DNA of 48,061 nt from the IMG/VR virus record IMGVR_UViG_3300010392_000224; one strand, written 5' to 3'. Every line of letters begins with the position of its first letter. Position 1 is the first letter of the stretch. The translations under genes and the position numbers were made by a program. The notes beneath the pieces were generated by a model. The model did no database searches. It had not been told where the DNA came from and saw nothing but the letters and a program-made list of their open reading frames with translations. Positions 2,468-48,061 of the stretch are shown here, in pieces. The stretch is from a virus.

Positions 2468-4459
2468 TTATAGGTGGCTTCCACTAAACTCGTACGGTGG
2501 CTCGACAGATTCTACTATCTCTTTACCCTCTGTCCAGTGCTCTCCGCACTTAAATCCCGTTCCGAGTGGGACATTGAACTCGATATTATATACCTCTTTT
2601 AAGTAGTTGTAAACACAAACTGTAAAACATTTTACCGCAATCTCTCTGACTATATCAACTTCATCAGGGTGTACTTCCATAACGACACTGTCGTGTATGG
2701 TGTTAACTATAAAACTACGCAACCCGTTACTGTGCAGCTCGTGCCACAGGTATGTGAGAGCTATTGGTATTATGTCAGCCGTAGCTAGCCCTTGTACTGG
2801 GTAGTTACATATCTGAGTAGTGTTCGTTACATAGTTACTTCCTCTCTGTATCTTGGTATTTGGATAGTGATAGATGAGTCCTGTCACTGTGCGTACTTTC
2901 TGCGTAGCCAGAGCCTCGTCAATCCACGACTGCTGTGCTGCTGCTACACCGGGATACTTCTCCCTGAATGCGGCGTAGTACCGCTCCTGCTCAGGTGTAC
3001 CACGACTACCACCATACAATGGCTTGAATGTTTCTGACTTAGCTGACTGTCTCCAGTCACCCTTGGCTTCCGTATTAGCCAGTACTTCCTCAAGTGTCAC
3101 GCCGCGCAGTTGGCTGGCAGTGAATGAGTGTACGTCAAATCCATTGTTGATGTCAGTGATGGCCCGATAGTCCTGCCCTAAGAAGGCAGCCACGCGGAAC
3201 TCTAACTGTGCTCCGTCAATCTCAGCTATTAACCAGCCCTTGTTACGGGCACAGAATAATGGCTTAAACTCACGTGCTTGGTTCTGGAATTGGATAGCAT
3301 ACCTAGCGCCAGAGCTACTAAGTCTCTGTGTCTTGGTTGCTGTCTGATTGAAACGGGCGTACAGTATGTCCTCTGCCTCCACACAGGCCATGTACTTGTT
3401 GAGGGATTTAGTTAGCTTAGCATTTAGAAATGCATACCGAGCGTTCAGCTCTAGGAAGGCACGCTGTTGCTTGTTCCTGCCCTTGAGTGAGGCTAGAGTT
3501 TCAGAGTCAGTCTTCCTGCCACCACTCGGAGTTCGTATTGGTTCTCCTCTTTTGTTCTTGAGTTCGGCTATGCCAAGTGTGTCATATATAAACTCGCCCA
3601 GTTGCTTGGGAGAATTTAGATTGATGCCACCACACATCTCGTCGAGCTGCAATCGTACTTCATTGAACTCTATTAGTGTGCTGTTATACACCTTGGTGAC
3701 ACGTTCTTTGGACAGCGCCATGCCATTAGATTCTATGTTGGCCAGCACTGGTGTGAGTATACACCTAGTCCACATAGTCTGCAACAGCCCAAGCTCTCGA
3801 AGCTTATCACGCTGTCGTAGAAATATCTCATGCGTAACGTTTACATCGTATATGCACCTGCGCTCTAGCATACTGCGAGGCAGGTCTGATGGACATACAC
3901 CTCCTTTAATGCACTTATCTATGTACGGTTCTTTACCTGTCAATCCATAGCGCTTGGCCGTCTCTCCTAGAGAGAGCTTATTAAGTGGTAAAGAAGTAGT
4001 CCCAGCGTAGATAATATACTCAGCAATGAGAGTGTCCCAAACAAATACATTATGCAGGTCCATGCCCGCCCTCTCCAACCACTGAAGATCGAACTTGATA
4101 TTGTGGCCGACGACAAAATCTGCCCGCTCCGCACGCTCCTGAATGCTCTGAATAGCGTACTCGCTTCCCCATACAACGGAAGTTCTACCTCTAGGTAGCG
4201 ATGGTGTGGGTTGTTTATCTTCTGCGTTAACATCAGTTCGTACAGCTGTTCGTTCATAGCCGACGGAGAGGACAAGAGAGTTCTCCGTATTTTGTGCAGA
4301 TCCTTTGTCCTTATTTGTAGTTTCAAAGTCAAGCACGAAGTAGTTGTCTGAGCCATAAGTTTTATACCTTGTTAGTCTGTCAATTAACGTGTCCTCCCTA
4401 GTTGTAATACAGTAAGAAGAGCACGTAGTGGTACTCTTGGCGCAAACTCCAGTGACCAC
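2468..4459 (-). CDS. Family A DNA polymerase with 3'-5' exonuclease domain
   Basis: Exonuclease motifs DFETT and HNIKFDLQWL are present. Polymerase motifs are A (LIAEIDGAQLEFRVAAFL), B (RQSAKSETFKPLYGG) and C (NTIHDSVVME). The longest ORF begins with GTG at 4459 and there is no in-frame ATG before the Exo I motif. Confidence 0.95.
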   Translation of the reverse strand: MVTGVCAKSTTTCSSYCITTREDTLIDRLTRYKTYGSDNYFVLDFETTNKDKGSAQNTENSLVLSVGYERTAVRTDVNAEDKQPTPSLPRGRTSVVWGSEYAIQSIQERAERADFVVGHNIKFDLQWLERAGMDLHNVFVWDTLIAEYIIYAGTTSLPLNKLSLGETAKRYGLTGKEPYIDKCIKGGVCPSDLPRSMLERRCIYDVNVTHEIFLRQRDKLRELGLLQTMWTRCILTPVLANIESNGMALSKERVTKVYNSTLIEFNEVRLQLDEMCGGINLNSPKQLGEFIYDTLGIAELKNKRGEPIRTPSGGRKTDSETLASLKGRNKQQRAFLELNARYAFLNAKLTKSLNKYMACVEAEDILYARFNQTATKTQRLSSSGARYAIQFQNQAREFKPLFCARNKGWLIAEIDGAQLEFRVAAFLGQDYRAITDINNGFDVHSFTASQLRGVTLEEVLANTEAKGDWRQSAKSETFKPLYGGSRGTPEQERYYAAFREKYPGVAAAQQSWIDEALATQKVRTVTGLIYHYPNTKIQRGSNYVTNTTQICNYPVQGLATADIIPIALTYLWHELHSNGLRSFIVNTIHDSVVMEVHPDEVDIVREIAVKCFTVCVYNYLKEVYNIEFNVPLGTGFKCGEHWTEGKEIVESVEPPYEFSGSHL

Positions 4460-4644
4460 GGTGCAAGATATAACCTACCACCAACAGAACTGACTACTTC
4501 CCTCGATCCGGCATTGTTATCACTGGCGTAGTAAGGCCCGCGGTAGCCTATTAGGATAAGCTTGTTTAATATTGTGTTCCTGCTTATGTCAGGCAGTAAA
4601 CTCATATCTACACTAAAGTCGGGCAGTCTTTTTTGTGCTATCAC
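4384..4644 (-). CDS. Hypothetical protein (86 aa)
   Basis: Its start overlaps the helicase stop (ATGA) and it covers the 180-nt gap before the polymerase. The last 76 nt overlap the polymerase GTG-start region, so its C-terminus may not be real. Confidence 0.4.
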   Translation of the reverse strand: MIAQKRLPDFSVDMSLLPDISRNTILNKLILIGYRGPYYASDNNAGSREVVSSVGGRLYLAPWSLEFAPRVPLRALLTVLQLGRTR

Positions 4645-6072: not shown

Positions 6073-6835
6073 GTAGTTGTTCCTCCGTCATGTCTTTTGG
6101 GTCTTTGTCAACGAGTACAATAGAAAAGTTTTCAAATAAAATACTCCACTGTCTTTGTAATTCAAACGCTGTTGCCTGTGCATCTTGGTCTAGGCATATA
6201 CGCAGATCGGTTACACCTATACGTACAAGCAGGGATACAAGGCTGTGTGTCATACCAGTACCGAGCAGGGCAGCAGCACATGTGTGCTTGTTAAGCGCCT
6301 CTGCACTTGGTATATCCTCAACTAAGTACAGCGTACCATTAAACTTCTTGTGTGTCAAATGTGGGAAGTGTGCAAGTGGGTCTTCAGTCTCCTCGGTCAG
6401 GATGTTAATTGCCTTCGGAGCATATGAATAGTCAGGACTGATAGACGGGTACCGTCTCTGCACATACCCTATGCACTGACCATACCACGACAGTATTGGA
6501 TAGTACAGGGAGTGAGTGCGCACACTATACTTAACACGTGGTACTATATCAAGAGCAACGCTTGGTATACCTGACGCCAACAGTATATCCCCTGCGTTAA
6601 CGAGGTCATTGGGTAACTGTATTGTCACCCGCTTGCTAGCAGGCTTGGTTGGTTTGTGTGTAGAACTGACACCGCACTTGTTACGGAAGCAGATATAACT
6701 AATCTTACCGTCGCGTGTGTCCACTATCATACACTTCTCTTTAGTACTACCACCTCCACATACTGGACAGCAGATTCTATGTGTGCCGGGCGATAGGGTG
6801 TACCCTCTCTGTACGAATAGCTTCTCTAAGTTCAC
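6047..6835 (-). CDS. DNA primase (zinc ribbon plus TOPRIM)
   Basis: It has an N-terminal Cys4-type pattern (ICCPVCGG...YICFRNKCG). The TOPRIM signature is present: Glu in LYLVEDIPSAE and DxD in CLDQDAQA. It lies directly upstream of the helicase. The start is GTG. Confidence 0.8.
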   Translation of the reverse strand: MNLEKLFVQRGYTLSPGTHRICCPVCGGGSTKEKCMIVDTRDGKISYICFRNKCGVSSTHKPTKPASKRVTIQLPNDLVNAGDILLASGIPSVALDIVPRVKYSVRTHSLYYPILSWYGQCIGYVQRRYPSISPDYSYAPKAINILTEETEDPLAHFPHLTHKKFNGTLYLVEDIPSAEALNKHTCAAALLGTGMTHSLVSLLVRIGVTDLRICLDQDAQATAFELQRQWSILFENFSIVLVDKDPKDMTEEQLHVTFGTTT

Positions 6836-7082
6836 GTGACATTACCTCTACTAGTGTTCGTGCGTGCCAAAGCCTGAATCTGCTTGGCGGTATTGTATCA
6901 GTTGAGGAAATACTAATGCTGCCATCAGTGTACGTCTTAACTATCAAGAAGAACGGTGACGGGTACCTTATTGTCATTGCGTGGTTGGTGGCAACGTTCA
7001 TACCTTTGCGAATGAAGTAATCTCTGATAAACCCCGCACGATACCGATCTACGTGAGTGATCACTCTGGTACTAATGGTCAT
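6777..7082 (-). CDS. Hypothetical protein (101 aa)
   Basis: Its ATG overlaps the stop of the upstream mini-ORF. The 3' end overlaps the primase start by 59 nt. Confidence 0.5.
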   Translation of the reverse strand: MTISTRVITHVDRYRAGFIRDYFIRKGMNVATNHAMTIRYPSPFFLIVKTYTDGSISISSTDTIPPSRFRLWHARTLVEVMSRELREAIRTERVHPIARHT

Positions 7083-7215
7083 GTAGGTCTATCTCAATAA
7101 TACCTTCTTCATCATAGAAGGGGTCTACATCTACGTCGTCACATGCAGGACAGTATGGTTCTCCAGATGGGTCGTAGTGTAATTCATCAAAACAATTAGG
7201 ACAGAAATCAGACAT
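7072..7215 (-). CDS. 47-aa zinc-ribbon-like mini-protein (not in ORF track)
   Basis: Hand translation gives MSDFCPNCFDELHYDPSGEPYCPACDDVDVDPFYDEEGIIEIDLHDH. It has two CxxC pairs, an AAGGAA RBS about 9 nt upstream, and a stop overlapping the ATG of the next gene. Confidence 0.5.
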   Translation of the reverse strand: MSDFCPNCFDELHYDPSGEPYCPACDDVDVDPFYDEEGIIEIDLHDH

Positions 7216-7227
7216 AAAATTATTTCC

Positions 7228-7255
7228 TTGACAAGTTTAGTTTATATGCTATAAT
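7228..7255 (+). promoter_or_regulatory. Near-consensus sigma70-type promoter on the plus strand, antisense to local genes
   Basis: TTGACA (7228-7233), a 16-nt spacer ending in TGc (extended -10), then TATAAT (7250-7255). Every neighbouring gene is on the minus strand. Confidence 0.45.
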
Positions 7256-7260
7256 AATTT

Positions 7261-7302
7261 ATATATAATATACTTACGTATATATATATACATATTATAT
7301 AT
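7261..7302. repeat. AT-only inverted repeat downstream of the GGCT gene
   Basis: ATATATAATAT (7261-7271) is the exact reverse complement of ATATTATATAT (7292-7302). The 20-nt spacer contains TACGTA and a (TA)n run. Confidence 0.6.
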
Positions 7303-7694
7303 TAACCTACCTTGTACTTAACCCAATCACCTGACTCAACAACAGGATACTTAGAGTACCGAGTGTAGTCTTCTACAAAGTAGATCCATGCTTTAGTCAT
7401 TGTACCATCTTCGAGATTGATGTCAACTTCTTTTCGATTATAAAATCGTGGGTACCCTTCCAACCCATCCAAGTGACGGAAGGTATTGTCGTCAACCTCG
7501 TACACTTCTACCTGCACTGGTGCTGGTGGGAAGTCAGGAGAGTGTGTTATCGCAGGGAACCCACCGAGACTGTGCATTGTGAAGGGTTCTGCTGTCTGGC
7601 CACGCTTATGCTCTTCGATGTGGCCTAGATAAGACCGGTGATTGCCCATGTTCTTACGCAGTGAACCATACACTGCTACTAAATGTGTAGACAT
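7302..7694 (-). CDS. Gamma-glutamyl cyclotransferase (GGCT/AIG2-like) family protein
   Basis: 130 aa. The N-terminal motif is VAVYGSLRKNMGNH (YGSL motif), with a later conserved-looking Glu in VQVEVYEVD. Size is typical of the family. Confidence 0.8.
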   Translation of the reverse strand: MSTHLVAVYGSLRKNMGNHRSYLGHIEEHKRGQTAEPFTMHSLGGFPAITHSPDFPPAPVQVEVYEVDDNTFRHLDGLEGYPRFYNRKEVDINLEDGTMTKAWIYFVEDYTRYSKYPVVESGDWVKYKVG

Positions 7695-7695
7695 T

Positions 7696-7962
7696 TTACT
7701 TTTCCTTTACGTCAGGTAGTTTTTCTAATGTCTCTACCAACGTACTCACTGGTACTTTAATAGAATCATTAATGTTTTTGTGGTTCATGCGGCACAGTGT
7801 TGCTACGTATGGAGGAGTTCCATCCGATATTGGTTTCATAAACGCTATCCACACATCACCGTCAATCTTGTTGTAGAATCTAAGCCCTTTGTTAAGGGCT
7901 ATTCTTCTGACCTTCTTGGCAAGTGATGCACTGTAGTGGCAGCGTATGCCACGCGCCGTCAT
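7696..7962 (-). CDS. Hypothetical protein (88 aa)
   Basis: Tightly packed between 7959..8510 (ATGA overlap) and the GGCT gene. No motif. Confidence 0.6.
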   Translation of the reverse strand: MTARGIRCHYSASLAKKVRRIALNKGLRFYNKIDGDVWIAFMKPISDGTPPYVATLCRMNHKNINDSIKVPVSTLVETLEKLPDVKEK

Positions 7963-8510
7963 GCCGCAGAGGCAGCACGTACGGCTGCATCAAGAGCAGC
8001 TAAGATTTCTTCAACGTTGGCATCCTGCTTCTTAACTCGCTTGTCGTCGCTGAAGTCAGGCTTCTTCCACTCACGGGCAGCAACCTTTCCATTCTTATCT
8101 TCATCAGCAGCCCAGATATTGTAGCTGAACGAGGCAACCAAGTTACCTGAGTTCTTGTTCTTGGCTACAGGACCCCGTGTGAATCCAAAGAACTCACAGA
8201 AATCTTCCAAGCTAATATCACCAGCATCTTTACCCTGCTTCCACTGAGAGGAACCGCGCTTAAGGTCTGCCCACTCACCATAGTTAAGGACACAGTCTGC
8301 CACCACTACGATGCCGGGGATCTGTGGTGCCATCTCCATAATGAAGTGAGTGTACATCTTGTGCTTCTGTTCGAGAGTCAGCTCATTGATAACTCCGTCT
8401 GGTCCATCGACGCGGAACCCATGCAGGATTCGTGCGCCGCAGCAATGAGGGAATGAATCAATGTTTGCTGTCATTGTTACACCATAGTGTGTTACTGTTA
8501 CTGTGCTCAT
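7959..8510 (-). CDS. Hypothetical protein (183 aa) with shared C-terminal helix DANVEEILAALDAAVRAASA
   Basis: The preferred start is the ATG at 8510 (MSTVTVTHYGV), preceded by GGAG 7 nt upstream; the track's longer form starts at 8588. It contains FPHCCGARILHGF. Its last 20 aa are encoded by the 59-nt repeat. Confidence 0.7.
   Translation of the reverse strand: MSTVTVTHYGVTMTANIDSFPHCCGARILHGFRVDGPDGVINELTLEQKHKMYTHFIMEMAPQIPGIVVVADCVLNYGEWADLKRGSSQWKQGKDAGDISLEDFCEFFGFTRGPVAKNKNSGNLVASFSYNIWAADEDKNGKVAAREWKKPDFSDDKRVKKQDANVEEILAALDAAVRAASAA
7966..8024. repeat. 59-nt perfect direct repeat, copy 1 (identical to 11510-11568)
   Basis: Exact nucleotide identity by direct comparison. Flanking bases differ on both sides. 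Confidence 0.97.
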
Positions 8511-8526
8511 TTGTTTTCTCCGGGGG

Positions 8527-8817
8527 TCATTGTATCTGTAAACATTTTTTAAATGTTCGTATGTTAATTTTTGGGATGCCGTGCACAACGCTAAAGGCGT
8601 CGGCGTTATCTTGGGTAAGTCTTGAAATTCCTAAACTGTGTGTGCCCACAACCACGTGGATATAGACAGGTACGCTGCTCAGAAATCTATGGTTGGCTCG
8701 TAGGGGGTAACTTAATCCGCCAATAGATGTGGATTGTTTAAGGCTTGCTAATCTTTCCACTATCATTAGGAACTCTTGGTGGGTTACCGTTGTCGTTCTT
8801 ACCATGAAAGATCTCAT
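8527..8817 (-). CDS. Hypothetical protein (96 aa)
   Basis: Its start overlaps the ATP-grasp stop (ATGA) and it fills the gap to the next gene. It contains an AT hairpin near its 3' end. No motif. Confidence 0.45.
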   Translation of the reverse strand: MRSFMVRTTTVTHQEFLMIVERLASLKQSTSIGGLSYPLRANHRFLSSVPVYIHVVVGTHSLGISRLTQDNADAFSVVHGIPKINIRTFKKCLQIQ

Positions 8818-9566
8818 GCGCTAAGATACTCCCGAAATGCAGCTGCATAATTGTCAAGCGTAGTACCCACTAACCCCGGAGCTGTATTAACTTCCAGCAC
8901 GTAGTAGGTATCACTGTGTTGATTGTAGATCAGGTCAACAGCACCGAAGTCAAGACCTAGTGCACCAACTGCATCAACTGCCAGCCGAGTGGCATCAGCA
9001 GGAAGGGAAACATTTTCACGACCAAACACAAAACCATTAGCATGATTACGTACCTGCCAATTAACACTCTCATCAGGTACCTCATGGCTGCGCATCTTGC
9101 GTTGTATATCAAAGGCACGATCACCAAGTACATGTACTCGGTACTCCTCCTGCTTCTTGACATACTTCACATAGAGCGGGGCATTAACGAGTGGGTTCTC
9201 GCTGTCACTTATGACAATACCACGGCCCTCTGATGCTTTGGTTAATGTACGGCACACAACCACTTGGCCCTCACTGAGCCACCGTTGCGCCTCCTCACGG
9301 GACGTTGTAAAAACTGGTATGGTTACATTACCCTCCAGTATATTAAACGCACGTAGCTTGTCTGACGCTACTGCTACTGCATCTGGTCTGTTCAGTACGT
9401 GCGGTGTTGTGTCAGTATAGTCCTGACTGCCCCAGTTTATGACAATGTCAGCTGATCGTGGTCGCCAGCGACTACCTCGCCGCTTAAGTACACGGCAGTT
9501 TAATGCTGCTGCTAGTGATACAGCAGAGCGAGACCCCTGCTTATAGGGGTATATCTTAGTCGACAT
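8814..9566 (-). CDS. ATP-grasp family ligase (RimK-like fold)
   Basis: 250 aa with the motifs CRTLTKASEGRGIVI, EEYRVHVLGDR, QVRNHANGF and the C-terminal DTYYVLEVNTAPGL, which are typical of ATP-grasp carboxylate-amine ligases. Confidence 0.85.
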   Translation of the reverse strand: MSTKIYPYKQGSRSAVSLAAALNCRVLKRRGSRWRPRSADIVINWGSQDYTDTTPHVLNRPDAVAVASDKLRAFNILEGNVTIPVFTTSREEAQRWLSEGQVVVCRTLTKASEGRGIVISDSENPLVNAPLYVKYVKKQEEYRVHVLGDRAFDIQRKMRSHEVPDESVNWQVRNHANGFVFGRENVSLPADATRLAVDAVGALGLDFGAVDLIYNQHSDTYYVLEVNTAPGLVGTTLDNYAAAFREYLSA

Positions 9567-9816
9567 GTAGTGCCTCCTTCATTTGTTCAACAGTTACTTG
9601 TTTAATGCTACCGTTGCCGGGGTTCCAGTTAACAGACCCTGCCGCAATACCAGAACTGTGTGGCGATAGTAGAGGATTCCGTACATAAAAGTACTTGTGG
9701 CTCTGCGCAAGAGAACCAACAGCGCGAGAACCATATAACCTCTCAGCAGCTATGCGTAGTTGTCTTAATTCAGGCATAGAAACAGGTCCACAAAATATGT
9801 AGTCAATGCTAGACAC
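9556..9816 (-). CDS. Hypothetical protein (86 aa)
   Basis: Overlaps both neighbours by 8-11 nt (coupled). No motif. Confidence 0.6.
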   Translation of the reverse strand: MSSIDYIFCGPVSMPELRQLRIAAERLYGSRAVGSLAQSHKYFYVRNPLLSPHSSGIAAGSVNWNPGNGSIKQVTVEQMKEALHVD

Positions 9817-10081
9817 GCAACACCTCCAATAATTTTTCTAGTGGTACCTCAATATAACGACCAGTGCTAAGTACGTGTTCCATAACTGGGGTGCTGGTTA
9901 TACAAAAGCACGAATAATAACCAACCGTCTTGGACAGTCGTATAGCAAAACCAATAACACCATGACTTATTTTTGGATTGATATGGTGTTGTGGTATTAT
10001 CTTTCTTGCCCCATTCATCAGCCTGCGTGCAACATCCAAGTCCGTTACACGGCACACGAGGTAGGGATTCTCAATAGCCAT
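9809..10081 (-). CDS. Hypothetical protein (90 aa)
   Basis: Overlaps the GATase stop region by 11 nt. No motif. Confidence 0.6.
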   Translation of the reverse strand: MAIENPYLVCRVTDLDVARRLMNGARKIIPQHHINPKISHGVIGFAIRLSKTVGYYSCFCITSTPVMEHVLSTGRYIEVPLEKLLEVLRV

Positions 10082-11465
10082 GTGCTTGGTACCTCTTTAG
10101 TTCTTTGAGACAGCTACCAGTCACATGCACATACTCGCCAGAGTCGTGTATCTGTACGTCTTTCAGTTCGTCCAGTGTGAATGGATCGCCGCACCAACAA
10201 CACCCACGAGAAGCTATCTTAAGAGCCAATGAAAGCTCAACCTCAACACCAGCAACCACAGCAGTATCCTCACTGCCGTCGTCATCAGTGCTTGGTTGCT
10301 TCCCTGATTGATCTGTGGAGGATGTCGACGACGTTGTCTGCTTTTTTTCTGGTATGATCACCACGTTACCTTTAGCGTCACGAACAAGAGATGCCATAGC
10401 ATAGTCATCTGCATTCTTTACACTAGTAGGTGTCACGTTCAGGGCGTAGGTGTTGGTGCCCTGTTTCTTTTTCTTACTGAACACTGTAGTAACACCGGTA
10501 ACCTCACCAGAATAGATTTCATCTAGGTCAAGCCGTCCTTTGGAATCAAACTTCAGACTGCTCTTGTGGATGTTATATACAATAACATCATCAGAACCAT
10601 CCCACAGTAAGCCCCACAAAGTACCACGCCCAGTAGTCTGTCCAGAATACTCGATGAACTCAGTAGCCTGAAAGTATATCTCTTCGCTTGGTTTAAACCC
10701 AAGGTCACTAAGACCGGGGAGAGTAGGATTTGCTTTAGTGCTGCGCCCACTCTGTTGATAAGTGGGCACATAGGGAGTGAACTGTCGGCTGGAGTGTGAG
10801 TCCTTGGTGAGCTTAGGTTGTGCCAAGCTTACGGTAAACAAGATACCTTCACGCAGATCAACAACCTTCTCTGGTTCAATGCCGTTACGAGCACACACCA
10901 AATCAATCATCTCACGCTCAGATGCCCACATAATAGAGTCACCACACCAAGCAATGGACAATGTACGCTTGTCGTTGCGTGCAAAGTTTATTGTCTGGTG
11001 CTCGGCGTCATACCATACCAAGGCATAAGATCCATGCAACTGTTCGAGCAGCGCAATGGGATCATCAACGATGGACATCTCATGTGCAATGTTCTCACTA
11101 TCTACGGTAAAGTTACCGGAAGATGAGAGACCACGACGAGACAGCAGTGTGCCGTTGTGTGTCAGGGTTATGTGGTTGTGAGTGAATGGGTGTGCATACA
11201 TATCAATGTGTGCACCGGACGTGGCGTGTCGATTATGCCCGATGATTGCACGGTTTGTGAGTGAGTACAGCCCAGTAGGCTGTGCTAATTGTAGAAAGTC
11301 AGCAGCATTGACTGCTCGCTTATATGTTGATACTAAGCCAGTGTTTGACACTGCACTTACACCAGTACTGTGTGCTCCACGTAACTGGTCAATGAAAAGA
11401 AGCTGCTGAAAAGCATCAACATGCTTCTTGTATAGATTACCGGCAACGCCTACCAATCCGCACAT
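10071..11465 (-). CDS. Class II (Ntn) glutamine amidotransferase domain protein with long C-terminal extension
   Basis: It starts MCGLVG, with the nucleophile Cys directly after Met, then GHNRHATSG and LTHNGTL. The last ~230 aa are not GATase-like: a beta-rich region, a Ser/Thr/Asp linker (TTSSTSSTDQSGKQPSTDDDGSED) and a Cys/His cluster (CCWCGD...H...GSC). Confidence 0.85.
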   Translation of the reverse strand: MCGLVGVAGNLYKKHVDAFQQLLFIDQLRGAHSTGVSAVSNTGLVSTYKRAVNAADFLQLAQPTGLYSLTNRAIIGHNRHATSGAHIDMYAHPFTHNHITLTHNGTLLSRRGLSSSGNFTVDSENIAHEMSIVDDPIALLEQLHGSYALVWYDAEHQTINFARNDKRTLSIAWCGDSIMWASEREMIDLVCARNGIEPEKVVDLREGILFTVSLAQPKLTKDSHSSRQFTPYVPTYQQSGRSTKANPTLPGLSDLGFKPSEEIYFQATEFIEYSGQTTGRGTLWGLLWDGSDDVIVYNIHKSSLKFDSKGRLDLDEIYSGEVTGVTTVFSKKKKQGTNTYALNVTPTSVKNADDYAMASLVRDAKGNVVIIPEKKQTTSSTSSTDQSGKQPSTDDDGSEDTAVVAGVEVELSLALKIASRGCCWCGDPFTLDELKDVQIHDSGEYVHVTGSCLKELKRYQAHGY

Positions 11466-11469
11466 CTAT

Positions 11470-12435
11470 TTATCCTCGCTCCGTTGGGGTGGCTACTGCT
11501 ATATTCTCAGCAGAGGCAGCACGTACGGCTGCATCAAGAGCAGCTAAGATTTCTTCAACGTTGGCATCGCCAGCAGTACTAGGGCCAGCGTATTTAGGAT
11601 TACGCTTAGGTTTAAACTCTTCGTTAACCATGAGGTCAATCGCATTGAGCAGGTTGTTCTGGTAGTACTCAAAGTACACACCATCCTCAAGGAGCTGACG
11701 AGAGTATGAACCAAACACACGGGTAATGTACTCTTCTGGACCAGTACGGATGTGCTTGAGTACAGTAGATGGAGACTTAACGGTAGCCGCGTAGTCAACC
11801 AACAGCAACAGGATACTCACCCATCGCATGATACGTGGTACCTCAAGGGTGCCCTCATGTGCACGGAACTCTACACTGCCACGCTCTTGTACTGAGTGCA
11901 GGTTAATGCCTGTGTACTTCTGCCACCGGCGAATAGCATGTCGAACATTATCTGAGTTACCATGTACAACGCTACGCATCAAAGACATTTGTTCTAATGC
12001 AGCTGTTACACCGGGGCAATAGATGTTATCGTAACGATCCTTACCGCCCTGCATATACAGAGCAGCCTCACTACCAACGTATGCCAGAAGCAGGGCTGCT
12101 AACTGTGTGGTAGAGAAGTCACGTACATCTACATGAACATGCAATGAGCAGCGCTCGCTGACGTTACAGTCAGGAGCAGCACGTAAGATACCAGTCAGTT
12201 GTTGCAGTGAGTCTCGCAGATCAGCACCGCCAAGGGGTTGTCGCAGTACCAACTCAACGCCGTTGTTGCGCAGAGAAGAGTCACCCTTGACTGCCCAATA
12301 CTTACTGTCACGTATCTGTTGTGCATTCTCTACCTCTACCTCAATACCTACGAGGCGTGTGGTTGGAATAGATACATGTGCACGGGTCTCACGAATGTCA
12401 GGGGTCAGCCCCTCGAATAAATTATGCAGCTGCAT
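11470..12435 (-). CDS. Putative amidoligase (Amidoligase_2-like, GS/GCS-type fold)
   Basis: 321 aa with RLVGIEVEVE near the N-terminus, SLHVHVD and GSVEFRAHEGT. The C-terminus carries the shared helix DANVEEILAALDAAVRAASA followed by ENIAVATPTERG. Confidence 0.75.
   Translation of the reverse strand: MQLHNLFEGLTPDIRETRAHVSIPTTRLVGIEVEVENAQQIRDSKYWAVKGDSSLRNNGVELVLRQPLGGADLRDSLQQLTGILRAAPDCNVSERCSLHVHVDVRDFSTTQLAALLLAYVGSEAALYMQGGKDRYDNIYCPGVTAALEQMSLMRSVVHGNSDNVRHAIRRWQKYTGINLHSVQERGSVEFRAHEGTLEVPRIMRWVSILLLLVDYAATVKSPSTVLKHIRTGPEEYITRVFGSYSRQLLEDGVYFEYYQNNLLNAIDLMVNEEFKPKRNPKYAGPSTAGDANVEEILAALDAAVRAASAENIAVATPTERG
11510..11568. repeat. 59-nt perfect direct repeat, copy 2 (identical to 7966-8024)
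   Basis: Exact nucleotide identity by direct comparison. Confidence 0.97.
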
Positions 12436-12997
12436 TTAAGATTTCCTTTGTGAAGGCGTCAGAGATCAGGCCGTTTGTAATTACTGGTTCACCATTAACA
12501 ATCTCTCCAACAATACGAGATCGTAGCATGATGCATGGGTTCTCATACTCACCGGTATGATTGATCCAGAAGTTGCGAGACAGGGCACAGCTTGTATTAG
12601 GCTTGCTTGTGGCAGCCAGCGCTTCGGCGTACGAATAATACGTTGGGTTATACATAGCCATGACTACGTCATAGCCAAACCGAACACCGCCCTGTAAGTT
12701 AAGGTACTTATCAACAATGCCACGACGCCACTGGCGAGCGGGCATACGACCGGCATAGAATGCTTTGTCTTTCTTAACACTGTATACCCCGGATGCAGGG
12801 AACTCATACACAATGGTTGGGTCATTGATACTGAGTGTAGTAGTCTCTTCTCCGTTACCAACAGTAACAACGAATCGATTACTACTACGCCCCTCATGTA
12901 CCAGCATAGGTACAATCTTATCACCAACACGCTTGCCTAAGTAGCAACGTGCATAAGTACGTGTGATGTCTTCACTACTCATGTTCAGTTGTTTCAT
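12422..12997 (-). CDS. Hypothetical protein (191 aa)
   Basis: A well-packed ORF whose stop overlaps the amidoligase start region by 14 nt. No motif recognised. Confidence 0.7.
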   Translation of the reverse strand: MKQLNMSSEDITRTYARCYLGKRVGDKIVPMLVHEGRSSNRFVVTVGNGEETTTLSINDPTIVYEFPASGVYSVKKDKAFYAGRMPARQWRRGIVDKYLNLQGGVRFGYDVVMAMYNPTYYSYAEALAATSKPNTSCALSRNFWINHTGEYENPCIMLRSRIVGEIVNGEPVITNGLISDAFTKEILNAAA

Positions 12998-13000
12998 TCG

Positions 13001-13294
13001 TTAGTTTCTCCGCTGCATTAAATTATGACGAAAGAGTTTGAATATACCATGCCAGTAGCCGTCGCCCTGTTGAGAGTTCGCCCATGAGAATCCTCCGGCG
13101 ACGGTGTTGCCATGCATATCTGGCTTAGGGCTCGTGTCCAACTGGTGTATATACCTGATTGGGTCCTTGGCCTGCTTAACCCAAACTTCCTTAGCACCGC
13201 ACTCTTCCAGAGTCTTGATAAAGATCAGTGCACAGGGCCCGAGCGTTACCTTTAGTTCACTTGCCATTGTATACACCCACAACAGTGGTGTCAA
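13001..13294 (-). CDS. Hypothetical protein, distant member of the FxW..G..YW small-protein family
   Basis: The C-terminal GFSWANSQQGDGYWHGIF resembles the motif of the four tandem paralogs at 16357-17624. The start is possibly at 13267 (MASELKV). Confidence 0.55.
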   Translation of the reverse strand: MTPLLWVYTMASELKVTLGPCALIFIKTLEECGAKEVWVKQAKDPIRYIHQLDTSPKPDMHGNTVAGGFSWANSQQGDGYWHGIFKLFRHNLMQRRN

Positions 13295-13488: not shown

Positions 13489-14241
13489 TTATGGCATCTC
13501 CAGATTTAATTCACGGATAAGTTTCTTAGCACCACCAACATCAGATGTGTTAATGATACGAATGATTTCTTCCGGGTTGTAGTGAATGGCGTTAGTCACC
13601 GCATCTTTAGCACGATTGAACACCCACTCCATGAGGTCAGCATGGTTAAGCCAGAAGTTTGACAACGAGCGGTACTCTACACCGTAAGGTTTATTACGAT
13701 AGGCACCCGCTGCGCCATACTGAGCACGTCGCTGTGTGTCAGAGTCCATAACTACTGACGGAATACCAAGAGTAATATCCATTGTGCGGATAATCTCCCG
13801 ATTCTTTTCTACGGAACCCGCATCATATCCCACATGTACGTGGCCACCGGCTGTGCGCAGTTCCGTCAATGGTGACGGGGCGTTGTTCTGCTCACCGGTG
13901 TATGCGTTGAAGTCGGGATCACACCCAAACATCAGAGCCTGTCGACCAGATCGAATCAGCTCTTGCTTAGTGAAGCGATGACTAGCACAGATGTGCAGGT
14001 CTAGTGGTGCTACCTTAGTTCGTAGCTGATGCATCACGGTGGTGATGTTGGAAATAAATTCACGGCTGGTGCGTGCTGGCTCAATGTTAAACTCAGCGAG
14101 AACGTTGTCCTCTTGCAGCGCACCACACGCTACTGGGATGGGAGCAGTCTTCGTACCACCAACGTGACCAATGGCAGATACGATTGTACCGTGAGGGTCA
14201 ATCAGGAATACTTCTGGGTCTGTACCAATTAAAATGTTCAA
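13489..14241 (-). CDS. phiEco32-type COOH-NH2 ligase (type 2) family protein
   Basis: 250 aa. It begins MNILIGTDPEVFLIDPHG, followed by EDNVLAEFNIEP, GGHVHVGY and YGVEYRSLSNFW. As I recall it, this is the signature of the phage COOH.NH2 ligase-type 2 family. Confidence 0.7.
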   Translation of the reverse strand: MNILIGTDPEVFLIDPHGTIVSAIGHVGGTKTAPIPVACGALQEDNVLAEFNIEPARTSREFISNITTVMHQLRTKVAPLDLHICASHRFTKQELIRSGRQALMFGCDPDFNAYTGEQNNAPSPLTELRTAGGHVHVGYDAGSVEKNREIIRTMDITLGIPSVVMDSDTQRRAQYGAAGAYRNKPYGVEYRSLSNFWLNHADLMEWVFNRAKDAVTNAIHYNPEEIIRIINTSDVGGAKKLIRELNLEMP

Positions 14242-16671: not shown

Positions 16672-16958
16672 TGGATGCCTACCTTAACACACATACTGCG
16701 CCAGCCAGCACTGATGTCACCCAGCGAATAGTATCGTAGAGGGGGCACTTGTTTATAGGTACCCCAGAAAAATGCGCACTGTACCCAATTACTAACAGAA
16801 GTCCTGAGTAAGAAAGCTTCCATATCTGTCCCGGCGTTGGCTCTGGTGCAGCGGTCGAATGTCTCGATGTGTACACCCCTTCTACGTAGATAATCCCAGA
16901 ATAACATGCGCACTGCACGCTGTTGCTTATCATTCATGTCCCGATATTTAACAGTCAT
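16668..16958 (-). CDS. Tandem paralog family member 3 (96 aa, most divergent)
   Basis: It begins MTVKYRDMNDKQQRAVRMLFWDYLRRRG and ends AGWRSMCVKVGIQ. It has ATGA-type overlaps with both neighbours. Confidence 0.65.
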   Translation of the reverse strand: MTVKYRDMNDKQQRAVRMLFWDYLRRRGVHIETFDRCTRANAGTDMEAFLLRTSVSNWVQCAFFWGTYKQVPPLRYYSLGDISAGWRSMCVKVGIQ

Positions 16959-17281
16959 GCTATACCCCTGCTTCTACACAGCTTCTCCCACTCATCGTGG
17001 ATCTCACTCCAGAACGCGTGGCCCTCCGGCGTATCATCCCATATGAATGCAGTATCTATTACAGAACTAAGCCTGCCACCAGAGTACCTCAAGTACCGTA
17101 CACCAAGCAGGTACTGAGCGATAGATTCTGGTGGTGTGAATTCTCTTTCACGTGATACATGAGCTGCTCTCATGGTACTCAAGAAGTGGGGAGGACTCAC
17201 ACCCCTACTCTTAAGGAATGTATCGAATGCAGCAAGACACAAAGCCCTCGATGTCGCAGGCATTTCAGAAAATAATAACAT
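16955..17281 (-). CDS. Tandem paralog family member 2 (108 aa)
   Basis: It contains FDTFLKSRGV and ends AFIWDDTPEGHAFWSEIHDEWEKLCRSRGIA. Confidence 0.7.
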   Translation of the reverse strand: MLLFSEMPATSRALCLAAFDTFLKSRGVSPPHFLSTMRAAHVSREREFTPPESIAQYLLGVRYLRYSGGRLSSVIDTAFIWDDTPEGHAFWSEIHDEWEKLCRSRGIA

Positions 17282-17282
17282 G

Positions 17283-17624
17283 CTATTCTATCCCCGCTTG
17301 TATACATATCCGGGCCCACTCATTGTGGAGTTCGTGCCAGTATGCGTTGCCATGCTCTGTATTGGCCCACGCAAACGCATCATTAATAATTTGTCTGATG
17401 TATTGGATGCCGTCACGATAAGGCGCCAACTCTAGCTGCCGCCACTGCTCATCGAGCTGTATTAAACTCCGAACGGGGCGATTGTTGGTCAGTCCGAGAT
17501 CAACTAAATAGTTGCAGGAGTTAGCGAAGAATACACGCTCGATCCCTTTCTTTTTCAAGAAATCTCTGAAAGAAAGTCTTACCCTAAGCTTGGCCGCGGG
17601 GGGTAGGTCACCATACCGTACCAT
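17283..17624 (-). CDS. Tandem paralog family member 1 (113 aa)
   Basis: It begins MVRYGDLPPAAKLRVRLSFRDFLKKKGI and ends AFAWANTEHGNAYWHELHNEWARICIQAGIE. Confidence 0.7.
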   Translation of the reverse strand: MVRYGDLPPAAKLRVRLSFRDFLKKKGIERVFFANSCNYLVDLGLTNNRPVRSLIQLDEQWRQLELAPYRDGIQYIRQIINDAFAWANTEHGNAYWHELHNEWARICIQAGIE

Positions 17625-47825: not shown

Positions 47826-48060
47826 CTTCCTCCTCCTCGGGTGGAATGTAATCATCGCACCCCTCTCTCATAAATTCAAATCGTACCTTTACTCCCTTCG
47901 CCTCCAGTCTATACATGTCGCCAACACCACACTTCTTTGGGCACTTATAGTTACTGCAAGGAGAAAAGCAGAATGTAGCTACGTTGTTACCATGCCGCGA
48001 CAACCGGTCCAGTTGTCCAGCGCACGGTGAACTCATCTTCTGCCGGAGCTTCCGCAACAA
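47809..48060 (-). CDS. Cys-rich small protein, 5' end crosses the window junction
   Basis: It contains CFSPCSNYKCPKKC and an acidic tail (PPEEEEDALPD). The frame stays open across the junction to an ATG equivalent to window positions 133-135 (MTTLRKLRQKMSS...). It overlaps the 3' end of the 53..322 ORF in another frame, so the true start may be an internal Met. Confidence 0.45.
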   Translation of the reverse strand: MLRKLRQKMSSPCAGQLDRLSRHGNNVATFCFSPCSNYKCPKKCGVGDMYRLEAKGVKVRFEFMREGCDDYIPPEEEEDALPD

Positions 48061-48061
48061 A
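47935..48061. repeat. Terminal overlap, copy 2 (identical to 1-127)
   Basis: Base-by-base comparison shows no mismatch. Confidence 0.97.

Follow-up and report, generated by a model that had tools for sequence, protein, structure and literature searches.

The stretch of DNA analysed here (the window), the 48,061-nucleotide virus record IMGVR_UViG_3300010392_000224 of IMG/VR, carries two copies of a 59-nucleotide direct repeat within a minus-strand cluster of enzyme genes. The copies, at 7966-8024 and 11510-11568, are equal at 59 of 59 bases, and similarity stops right at both edges. Both are in frame on the minus strand and each encodes the same 20 residues, DANVEEILAALDAAVRAASA, at the C-terminus of a 183-residue protein (the 'f183' family) in one case and close to the C-terminus of a 321-residue amidoligase in the other. 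Exactly two copies exist in the 48 kb when up to three mismatches are allowed, and none arises in dinucleotide-preserving shuffles (n = 100), so the perfect repeat with immediately diverging flanks reported by the first-pass annotation of this DNA is confirmed, as are, by coordinates and translations, its frame, its strand and its place in the C-terminal, predicted helical segments of two proteins. The features that carry the repeat are the following.

7959-8510, minus strand: 183-residue protein of the f183 family; body (residues 1-145) probably GNAT-like, then linker and tail helix
7966-8024, minus strand: repeat copy 1, encoding the tail helix DANVEEILAALDAAVRAASA, residues 163-182 of the 183-residue protein, followed by A-stop
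8025-8075, minus strand: f183 linker (about residues 146-162; PDFSDD-KRVKKQ), of low model confidence and poorly conserved except for PDFSDE
11470-12435, minus strand: Amidoligase_2 carboxylate-amine ligase, 321 residues; body (1-270), disordered linker, tail helix and a 12-residue end
11473-11508, minus strand: the 12-residue extension after the helix, ENIAVATPTERG, in the amidoligase copy only; variable or absent in relatives
11510-11568, minus strand: repeat copy 2, encoding DANVEEILAALDAAVRAASA, residues 290-309 of the amidoligase, followed by ENIAVATPTERG-stop
11569-11625, minus strand: amidoligase linker (about residues 271-289), poorly conserved, with model confidence below 50 over residues 275-292

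The same virus is present on four further contigs from four samples (two ENA assemblies made with MEGAHIT at k141, ERZ27250939 and ERZ27250982, and two Joint Genome Institute assemblies, 3300010430 and 3300005589), each of which has both copies and differs from the window by 0 mismatches over up to 20 kb. The sole difference among the assemblies is one TA unit in a (TA)n run at about 7283-7291, in an AT-rich gap (7216-7301); all are otherwise identical to the window, and they provide no population variation. The two ends of the window overlap by 127 nt (1-127 and 47935-48061), which indicates an assembly k-mer of 127, as against 141 for the MEGAHIT contigs, both longer than the repeat. That one copy was put together from chimeric or collapsed reads, the failure the first-pass annotation had allowed for, has no support beyond the general risk attached to metagenomic contigs; both copies recur without mismatch in four other contigs from two different pipelines, so that an artefact is excluded for practical purposes, and the two-tail arrangement is found with other sequences in seven other lineages. 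The end overlap marks the window as the complete genome of a podophage, about 47.9 kb long (~47,934 bp) and either circularly assembled or terminally redundant, encoding terminase, portal, major head protein, tail appendage, endolysin, DnaB-like helicase, primase, family-A DNA polymerase, exonuclease and ribonucleotide reductase. Among named phages it is closest to Zobellviridae, for example Salinivibrio phage CW02 and PQ867848, a phage from an oyster metagenome, and the source is an uncultured phage of marine type. The complete genome has only the two copies, with no third tail-bearing protein, and the exact 59-mer has no match in IMG/VR.

The two proteins are unrelated outside their tails, as the first-pass annotation had stated: the bodies have a glutamine-synthetase/YbdK fold in one case and probably a GNAT-like fold in the other, as judged from structure models. 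The 321-residue protein matches PF12224 at 59.3 bits (gathering cut-off 22), and its AlphaFold2 model, with a mean predicted local distance difference test score (pLDDT) of 86.7, finds YbdK/GCS2 (1r8g, E 6.6e-5) and glutamine synthetases as its best Foldseek matches, identifying it as Amidoligase_2, a glutamine-synthetase-like predicted ligase. The f183 protein has no Pfam or PHROG match, and a profile search against the sequences of the PDB gave nothing. Its AlphaFold2 model (pLDDT 79) has as top Foldseek matches in the PDB nearly all GNAT acetyltransferases, weakly (E 6e-3, template-modelling score 0.40), and many of its matches in BFVD are also GNAT enzymes, so the body is probably GNAT-like. 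Invariant positions of the family are C23-C24-G25 and N118/N120-S121-G122-N123, an N-x-N-S-G-N motif.

The f183 family is very rare, with 27 clusters at E <= 1e-3 among 1.84 billion representative proteins. Its alignment finds no member in 50,697 deposited phage genomes and none in one genome for each of 185,579 bacterial and archaeal GTDB species, and a single-protein scan of IMG/VR with f183 gave nothing. The same scan with the amidoligase gave two loci. The amidoligase alone matches 291 deposited records, and its cluster is present in hundreds of phage genomes. Searches with the distant homologues P0053 and P0054 singly added no further lineage; the contigs of the distant f183 homologues P0053 and P0060 end before reaching an amidoligase.

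Both proteins end in the same way. In the AlphaFold2 model of the amidoligase a body with pLDDT above 90 is followed by residues 275-292 below 50 and by a helix at 293-312, and in that of f183 the body is followed by a low-confidence linker and a helix at 166-182. Alignments place this linker and helix at the end of 13 of 13 close f183 homologues, of nearly all distant ones and of 17 of 18 amidoligase relatives, as a variable Pro/Ser/Lys/Glu-rich linker, whose alignment columns are variable in both families, and then a helix of about 15-20 residues with the pattern D-[VIL]-x-x-[IV]-[IL]-x-x-[IL]-x-x-x-[IVL]. The tails are amphipathic, with a net charge of -1 to -4. The repeat peptide is thus, on these models, an acidic amphipathic helix tethered by a disordered linker of about 20 residues to two enzymes of unrelated fold. 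A membrane-targeting helix was considered and rejected, every tail being net acidic. Also rejected was a substrate recognised by its C-terminal residues, as S6 is by RimK: the last residues differ from lineage to lineage (AASAA, RAQS, LLGEV, DNFI, EARK, EQNS, ALLA, LEAA), and in the amidoligase of the window the peptide is not at the very end.

The tail pair within and between lineages

Both genes are found on one contig in eight lineages, namely the window, L003, L004/L005, the L010-L023 population, L001, L026, L027 and L032, the enzyme bodies of the others being 25-55% identical to those of the window. Their tails read as follows.

Window: amidoligase DANVEEILAALDAAVRAASA; f183 DANVEEILAALDAAVRAASA
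L003: amidoligase DNLEDVLAVLEQAIRSQ; f183 TNLEEILKELESAIRAQ
L004: amidoligase GDVDSIIAEINALLGD; f183 GDVEQIIAEINALLGE
L010 group: amidoligase (S)DIESILAELDNFI; f183 (A)DIESILAELDNFI
L001: amidoligase EQIEALQLLAAMRAEA; f183 EQEEALKLLAAMAAEA
L026: amidoligase GDVSDIIASLRSAVAAAR; f183 ADVKDIIESLRSAVAAAR
L027: amidoligase DSIADIINQINLQLGA; f183 ADVADIIKQINALLA
L032: amidoligase GDASAEQVLDAVREYIASLE; f183 GDASAEQVLAAVREYLASLE

In all eight lineages the f183 tail of the same genome gives the best score for the amidoligase tail (diagonal mean 50, off-diagonal mean 22.6), and in an exact permutation test the observed sum is reached by the true pairing alone (1/40,320). Between genomes the mean score is 23 for amidoligase against amidoligase tails and 28 for f183 against f183 tails. 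An unbiased all-against-all comparison of the C-terminal 50-mers of each locus's open reading frames (ORFs) by blastp-short placed the amidoligase/f183 pair first in 5 of 5 loci. Tail columns are 29% identical between lineages, as against 49-50% for the bodies in both families; the tail evolves faster than the enzymes that bear it, yet stays matched inside each genome.

This likeness extends to the codons. Between the two copies of the window 19 of 20 codons are identical where 7.5 are expected from codon usage (P = 5e-8), and identical codons are likewise above the codon-usage expectation in L014 (21/21), L019 (22/22), L010 (12/13) and L004 (10/13); these samples, like those behind the substitution rates given below, are small and the codon expectation comes from the two genes only, the direction being consistent. 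Genomes of the L010 population have an identical tract of either 52 nt or 81 nt, and in the longer tract the amidoligase linker AKDVTATTS is swapped for NKEAAPTT, the linker of f183, a common GAGCCT marking the junction. Homology in this population also extends beyond the stop codon and takes in four codons at the start of the small gene after f183; after the amidoligase these codons merely open a vestigial 8-codon ORF, and copying in that event therefore went from the f183 locus to the amidoligase locus. A synonymous TTG/CTG polymorphism is seen at both loci, in different genomes of the population, and so are AAT/AAG and ACT/GCT variants; since L019 has the derived AAT/ACT variants at its f183 locus, copying has also gone in the reverse direction. 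DNA is recurrently copied between the two tails in short tracts, and the 59-nt identity of the window is the most recent such conversion event. Of the explanations offered by the first-pass annotation, recent gene conversion or module exchange is the one that the codon identity, the varying tracts, the stop-crossing tract and the two-locus polymorphisms bear out.

For duplicated genes, concerted evolution through gene conversion is a familiar process. The tails show its hallmarks, likeness greater within than between genomes, synonymous identity, variable tract ends and polymorphisms shared by two loci, in which they resemble duplicated tuf genes, rRNA operons and phage tail-fibre modules. They differ from duplicated genes in that the converted unit is a module of 40-80 nt within two otherwise non-homologous genes. 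As a separate observation, the IMG/VR contig L011 has, at about 4480-4545, a 1-nt insertion in the amidoligase linker that splits the gene (GCTAAAAAGTGTGAC versus GCTAAAGATGTGAC), which is either a sequencing error or a pseudogene.

Between conversions the peptide is kept by selection. In L001 the tails are identical at 13 of 16 residues while only 5 codons are identical, against 5.8 expected by chance; synonymous sites have been randomised and the peptide kept. L026 and L032 are mosaics in which a DNA-identical patch adjoins a patch of the same amino acids in different codons. Pooled over the six lineages without complete recent conversion, the tail pair within a genome has a synonymous divergence (dS) of 1.28 and a nonsynonymous divergence (dN) of 0.19, giving a dN/dS of 0.15; in L001 and L027 the synonymous sites are close to saturated. 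Purifying selection thus acts on the tail peptide. Selection at the nucleotide level, which the first-pass annotation had offered as an alternative for the identity, is not needed, as L001 has kept the peptide and not the DNA. An RNA- or DNA-level function of the repeat was also rejected: it folds only weakly (z = -2.4), and with the help of flanks that differ between the copies, its promoter and terminator signals are not above those of shuffles, and the DNA is not conserved in relatives.

The tails are present together or absent together. In L030/L031 a distant f183 homologue (25% identity, E 2e-8) ends without the helix, and the amidoligase of the same contigs (277 residues) stops right after its body. 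CW02, PQ867848 and LUZ24 have the same enzyme cluster without f183, and their amidoligases are without the shared tail. In LUZ24, used as a negative control (same cluster, with the GNAT-like gp12), no two cluster proteins share a C-terminus. The amidoligase tail occurs only where a tailed f183 is present; a tail in just one of the two genes, which would have told against the proposal of a shared peptide, is not seen, both proteins being tailed in the eight lineages and both tail-less in L030/L031.

Some other short endings were noted in these genomes. At least eight small paralogues (gp1, gp4, gp6, gp7, gp11, gp13, gp14 and gp17) are scattered through the f183-less amidoligase cluster of CW02, of which gp1, gp4, gp11, gp13 and gp14 end in ..LLEEN[VI]-stop (once ..LLEDNV-stop), and PQ867848 has small paralogous ORFs at 3730-3951, 6943-7188, 7822-8031 and 8031-8252, some of which end in ..EMENE-stop. 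To judge by their sequences, these common endings may represent some other type of C-terminal signal, or a substrate tail. In L030 the tail-less f183-like protein (6639-7226) ends in ..EEDNIWS-stop and the 209-residue protein upstream of the amidoligase (3097-3726) contains ..ESDNIWGEP.., a likeness that could be a short shared motif or chance.

The surrounding enzyme cluster

In order of transcription the minus-strand cluster comprises a COOH-NH2 ligase, two small ORFs, a 191-residue protein, the Amidoligase_2 protein, a class II glutamine amidotransferase (GATase), ORFs of 90 and 86 residues, a RimK-like ATP-grasp protein, a 96-residue ORF, the 183-residue protein, an 88-residue ORF and a gamma-glutamyl-cyclotransferase-like protein. 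The members besides the two tailed proteins are listed here in that order.

13489-14241, minus strand: phiEco32-type COOH-NH2 ligase, the first cluster enzyme (PF14395; phrog_3815, E 9.5e-85)
12422-12997, minus strand: 191-residue conserved protein (phrog_11055), upstream of the amidoligase in all relatives
10071-11465, minus strand: class II GATase with a long C-terminal extension, between the tails (PF13522); position conserved in relatives
9809-10081, minus strand: 90-residue ORF between the tails, with no family match in Pfam or PHROGs
9556-9816, minus strand: 86-residue ORF between the tails, with no family match in Pfam or PHROGs
8814-9566, minus strand: RimK-like ATP-grasp ligase between the tails (PF08443, weak; phrog_2599, E 5.8e-91)
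8527-8817, minus strand: 96-residue ORF between the ATP-grasp and 183-residue protein genes; a small gene lies at the same spot in relatives
7696-7962, minus strand: 88-residue ORF, its start overlapping the f183 stop
7302-7694, minus strand: gamma-glutamyl cyclotransferase-like protein (GGACT/AIG2), the last cluster enzyme (PF06094, E 2.2e-24)

This is the known phage amidoligase cluster of phiEco32, LUZ24 and CW02, with the same enzyme set in the same order, but in those phages f183 and the matched tails are absent. A passage of PMC10580990 cites Iyer et al. 2009 for the prediction of the phage amidoligase/GAT-II/ATP-grasp/COOH-NH2-ligase/gamma-glutamyl-cyclotransferase cluster. In the searchable literature the function of the cluster (modification of peptides or of the cell wall, or a secondary metabolite) is so far only predicted, and no description of shared tails in amidoligase clusters is found there; related papers of the Aravind laboratory do not mention the tails.

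The end of the gene for the 191-residue protein overlaps the start of the amidoligase gene by 14 nt (12422-12435), and an overlap of 11-35 nt recurs in L003, L004, L026, L028, L029, L030 and L032. Because the overlap is kept in relatives, the two genes are probably translationally coupled, and their products possibly form a complex. The C-terminal part of the GATase, about 260 residues (10071-10870), consists of a Ser/Thr/Asp-rich low-complexity stretch and then a Cys-rich, zinc-ribbon-like end (CCWCGDPF...HVTGSC), of which the GDPF/(G)NPF motif is found again in L003 and L004, the preceding Cys also being kept in L004; this extension may offer other proteins of the cluster a place to dock. 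Small paralogues of about 75-110 residues with the motif F[SA]W(A/D)..(S/T)..G..(Y/F)W occur in several copies per genome, often within the amidoligase cluster (window 13001-13267, 16955-17281 and 17283-17624; L003 5575-5877; L005 2584-2859; L030 7217-8000, three in tandem). Beyond the last cluster gene, a perfect sigma-70 consensus (TTGACA, 16 nt, TATAAT, with an upstream TG) lies at 7228-7255 on the plus strand, in the AT-rich intergenic gap, opposing the surrounding minus-strand genes.

Function of the shared tail

The tail is likely a docking tag common to the two enzymes, to judge from its sequence and distribution. We propose that the helix is a docking or co-assembly tag that would bring the amidoligase and f183 together, and that the tails would bundle with each other in the manner of the encapsulation peptides of microcompartments. 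Direct bundling of tail with tail is the mode that we favour, tentatively and at somewhat less than an even chance, because the amidoligase tail goes whenever f183 or its tail is missing, with the other cluster proteins still present. Under such a mechanism both copies would have to remain alike, through recurrent short-tract conversion and purifying selection between events, and a homotypic contact would allow fast drift from lineage to lineage provided that the two copies change in step, as conversion enables them to do; the tag would then drift and still be matched within each genome. The first-pass annotation had suggested a shared docking or targeting peptide, for which the near-universal tails, their co-variation in eight of eight lineages, the purifying selection and the both-or-none distribution give indirect support.

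Several considerations weigh against this reading. Binding as such, that is, assembly of the proteins by the tag and contact of tail with tail, is something that we infer. A helix of about 17 residues would, on the models, be short for a stable coiled coil alone, and the hydrophobic moment, above the shuffle mean for most tails, is so with marginal significance and not at all in L001a and L026a. A dN/dS below 1 means that each tail is constrained, not that the two must match, and surface positions may be identical as a side effect of conversion and not because identity is required. The both-or-none distribution rests on one tail-less lineage and three f183-less phages. The benefit of co-assembly is conjecture, as the chemistry of the cluster is only predicted.

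The closest competitor, less probable but still to be taken seriously, is that each tail docks separately on one common protein, which would recruit both enzymes to one site or mark them for one and the same modification. All the evidence from the matched tags applies to it equally, hydrophobic positions are kept across lineages while polar ones vary, as would be expected of a helix in a conserved groove, and encapsulation peptides too bind a third party, the shell (PMC4594438). The partner could be the ATP-grasp protein, the C-terminal extension of the GATase, the 191-residue protein, the COOH-NH2 ligase, a small ORF product or a host hub protein. However, CW02, PQ867848 and LUZ24 keep every other cluster enzyme and yet have tail-less amidoligases, and in L030 likewise both proteins are tail-less, although the tail should persist were the receptor a conserved cluster protein. 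Comparison of the gene tables by eye reveals no third gene that tracks the tail-bearing clusters only, and with tails that diverge faster than bodies the receptor site would need to co-evolve rapidly.

We consider it improbable that the tails are generic, dispensable ends of common origin, homogenised neutrally by phage recombination. Gene conversion is demonstrably active and would by itself explain perfect identity, including that at synonymous and surface positions, and the phage has a 5'-3' exonuclease (phrog_107) and a protein of the Phage_endo_I family (T7 endonuclease I-like), typical of recombination-proficient podoviruses. Against this, the tails are kept in almost all members of both families across deep divergence, they are lost in a coordinated manner, both or none, and their dN/dS is 0.15, L001 and L027 being nearly saturated at synonymous sites. 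Sustained neutral conversion would moreover be poorly served by an island of 40-60 nt between non-homologous flanks, and direct repeats cost deletions.

Recruitment to the virion, raised by the first-pass annotation, is disfavoured, and loading of both enzymes into the procapsid by the tag is very improbable. There is precedent in encapsulins, HK97-fold shells that load cargo through short C-terminal tags common to different cargo proteins. Their cargo peptides are, however, extended and Gly/Ser-rich, whereas the tag here is predicted to be helical and is acidic; the minus-strand early/replication arm, to which the cluster belongs, stands opposite the structural module; predicted ATP- and glutamine-dependent ligases would be of little use within a capsid; and the Zobellviridae relatives CW02 and PQ867848, which are without f183, have tail-less amidoligases.

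Least tenable of the functional readings, with only the slightest chance of being right, is that the repeats function as DNA, serving as recombination sites at the borders of an excisable or exchangeable 3.5-kb cassette of enzymes. Recombination between short repeats is known in T7-like phages, and two 59-nt direct repeats 3,544 bp apart do permit an in-frame deletion, as the first-pass annotation had seen: it would delete 3,544 bp and leave a 310-residue amidoligase of body, tail and A-stop (junction GGCGATGCC, repeat, GCATGA). Lost in the deletion would be the amidoligase's 12-residue end, the GATase, the 90-, 86- and 96-residue ORFs, the ATP-grasp gene and the f183 body; the amidoligase body, which had been said to go, would stay. 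The in-frame hybrid stands, whereas the cassette is not supported: gene order is kept, and neither a variant without the block nor a conserved repeat is seen. Gene content and order between the tails are the same in eight of eight lineages, and the longest stretch of perfect identity shared by the two tails of L001, L003 or L027 measures about 8-11 nt, so that no substrate for recombination is kept. A search for variants lacking the segment, proposed as a check, finds no contig without the block among the five window-virus assemblies or at least 20 related contigs. Pfam and PHROG scans find no recombinase gene in the cluster, and four conserved enzymes would be lost by the deletion. We regard the 59-nt identity rather as a hazard of deletion, put up with for a short time after each conversion.

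A docking tag of this kind has a near parallel. Encapsulation peptides are helices of 15-20 residues on a poorly conserved linker, borne by several enzymes per locus, that self-associate into trimeric bundles and condensates and co-assemble cargo (PMC4594438; PMC12339742). Like those on Pdu, Eut and carboxysome cargo, the tails here are short terminal amphipathic helices on a poorly conserved hydrophilic linker that tag more than one enzyme of one cluster, with low sequence conservation between loci and a conserved hydrophobic pattern. They differ in that they belong to a lytic phage, that only two proteins are tagged and that the tags are acidic, and self-association is here attributed to them by analogy; they are also made near-identical by gene conversion, which is not described in PMC4594438 or PMC12339742. 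No BMC-H/T/P shell family is found among 10 cluster proteins (Pfam) or 28 window proteins (PHROGs), scans which did not take in every small ORF; the genome is that of an ordinary podovirus. The tag would accordingly resemble an encapsulation peptide in form and in its way of working, by analogy, and not belong to that system, the shell context being absent.

Two looser parallels may be drawn. The docking (COM/dd) domains of polyketide synthases and non-ribosomal peptide synthetases are likewise short, linker-joined terminal helices on enzymes of one pathway, where they give partner specificity and co-evolve pair by pair. They are, however, complementary hetero-pairs, a C-terminus with the next N-terminus, whereas here one sequence stands at two C-termini, and we know of no homogenisation of docking domains by gene conversion. 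In T7 the single-stranded DNA-binding protein gp2.5 and the helicase-primase gp4 are also two unrelated podophage proteins with similar acidic C-terminal tails, which contact the same partner, the DNA polymerase. Those tails are unstructured, aromatic-ended and at work in replication, in contrast to the predicted helices here, which are on biosynthetic enzymes and DNA-identical.

Taken at its fullest, the proposal is that the matched tails associate with one another and so collect the amidoligase and the GNAT-like enzyme, with the rest of the cluster piggy-backing, into an assembly or condensate that the phage builds during infection, a shell-less, virus-encoded counterpart of encapsulation-peptide systems whose specificity is reset in each lineage by conversion. 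This extended form is speculative, and we think it rather unlikely to hold in all its parts. Orthogonal short helix tags of different lineages could serve as co-localisation parts in synthetic biology, as encapsulation peptides do. A matched tag linking two enzymes of the amidoligase cluster would, if true, be the first experimental handle on its pathway. The tails of the amidoligase and f183 are a clean natural example of a short putative interaction module kept identical on two unrelated proteins through micro-scale conversion and selection, a mechanism by which binding specificity may drift fast without ever breaking.

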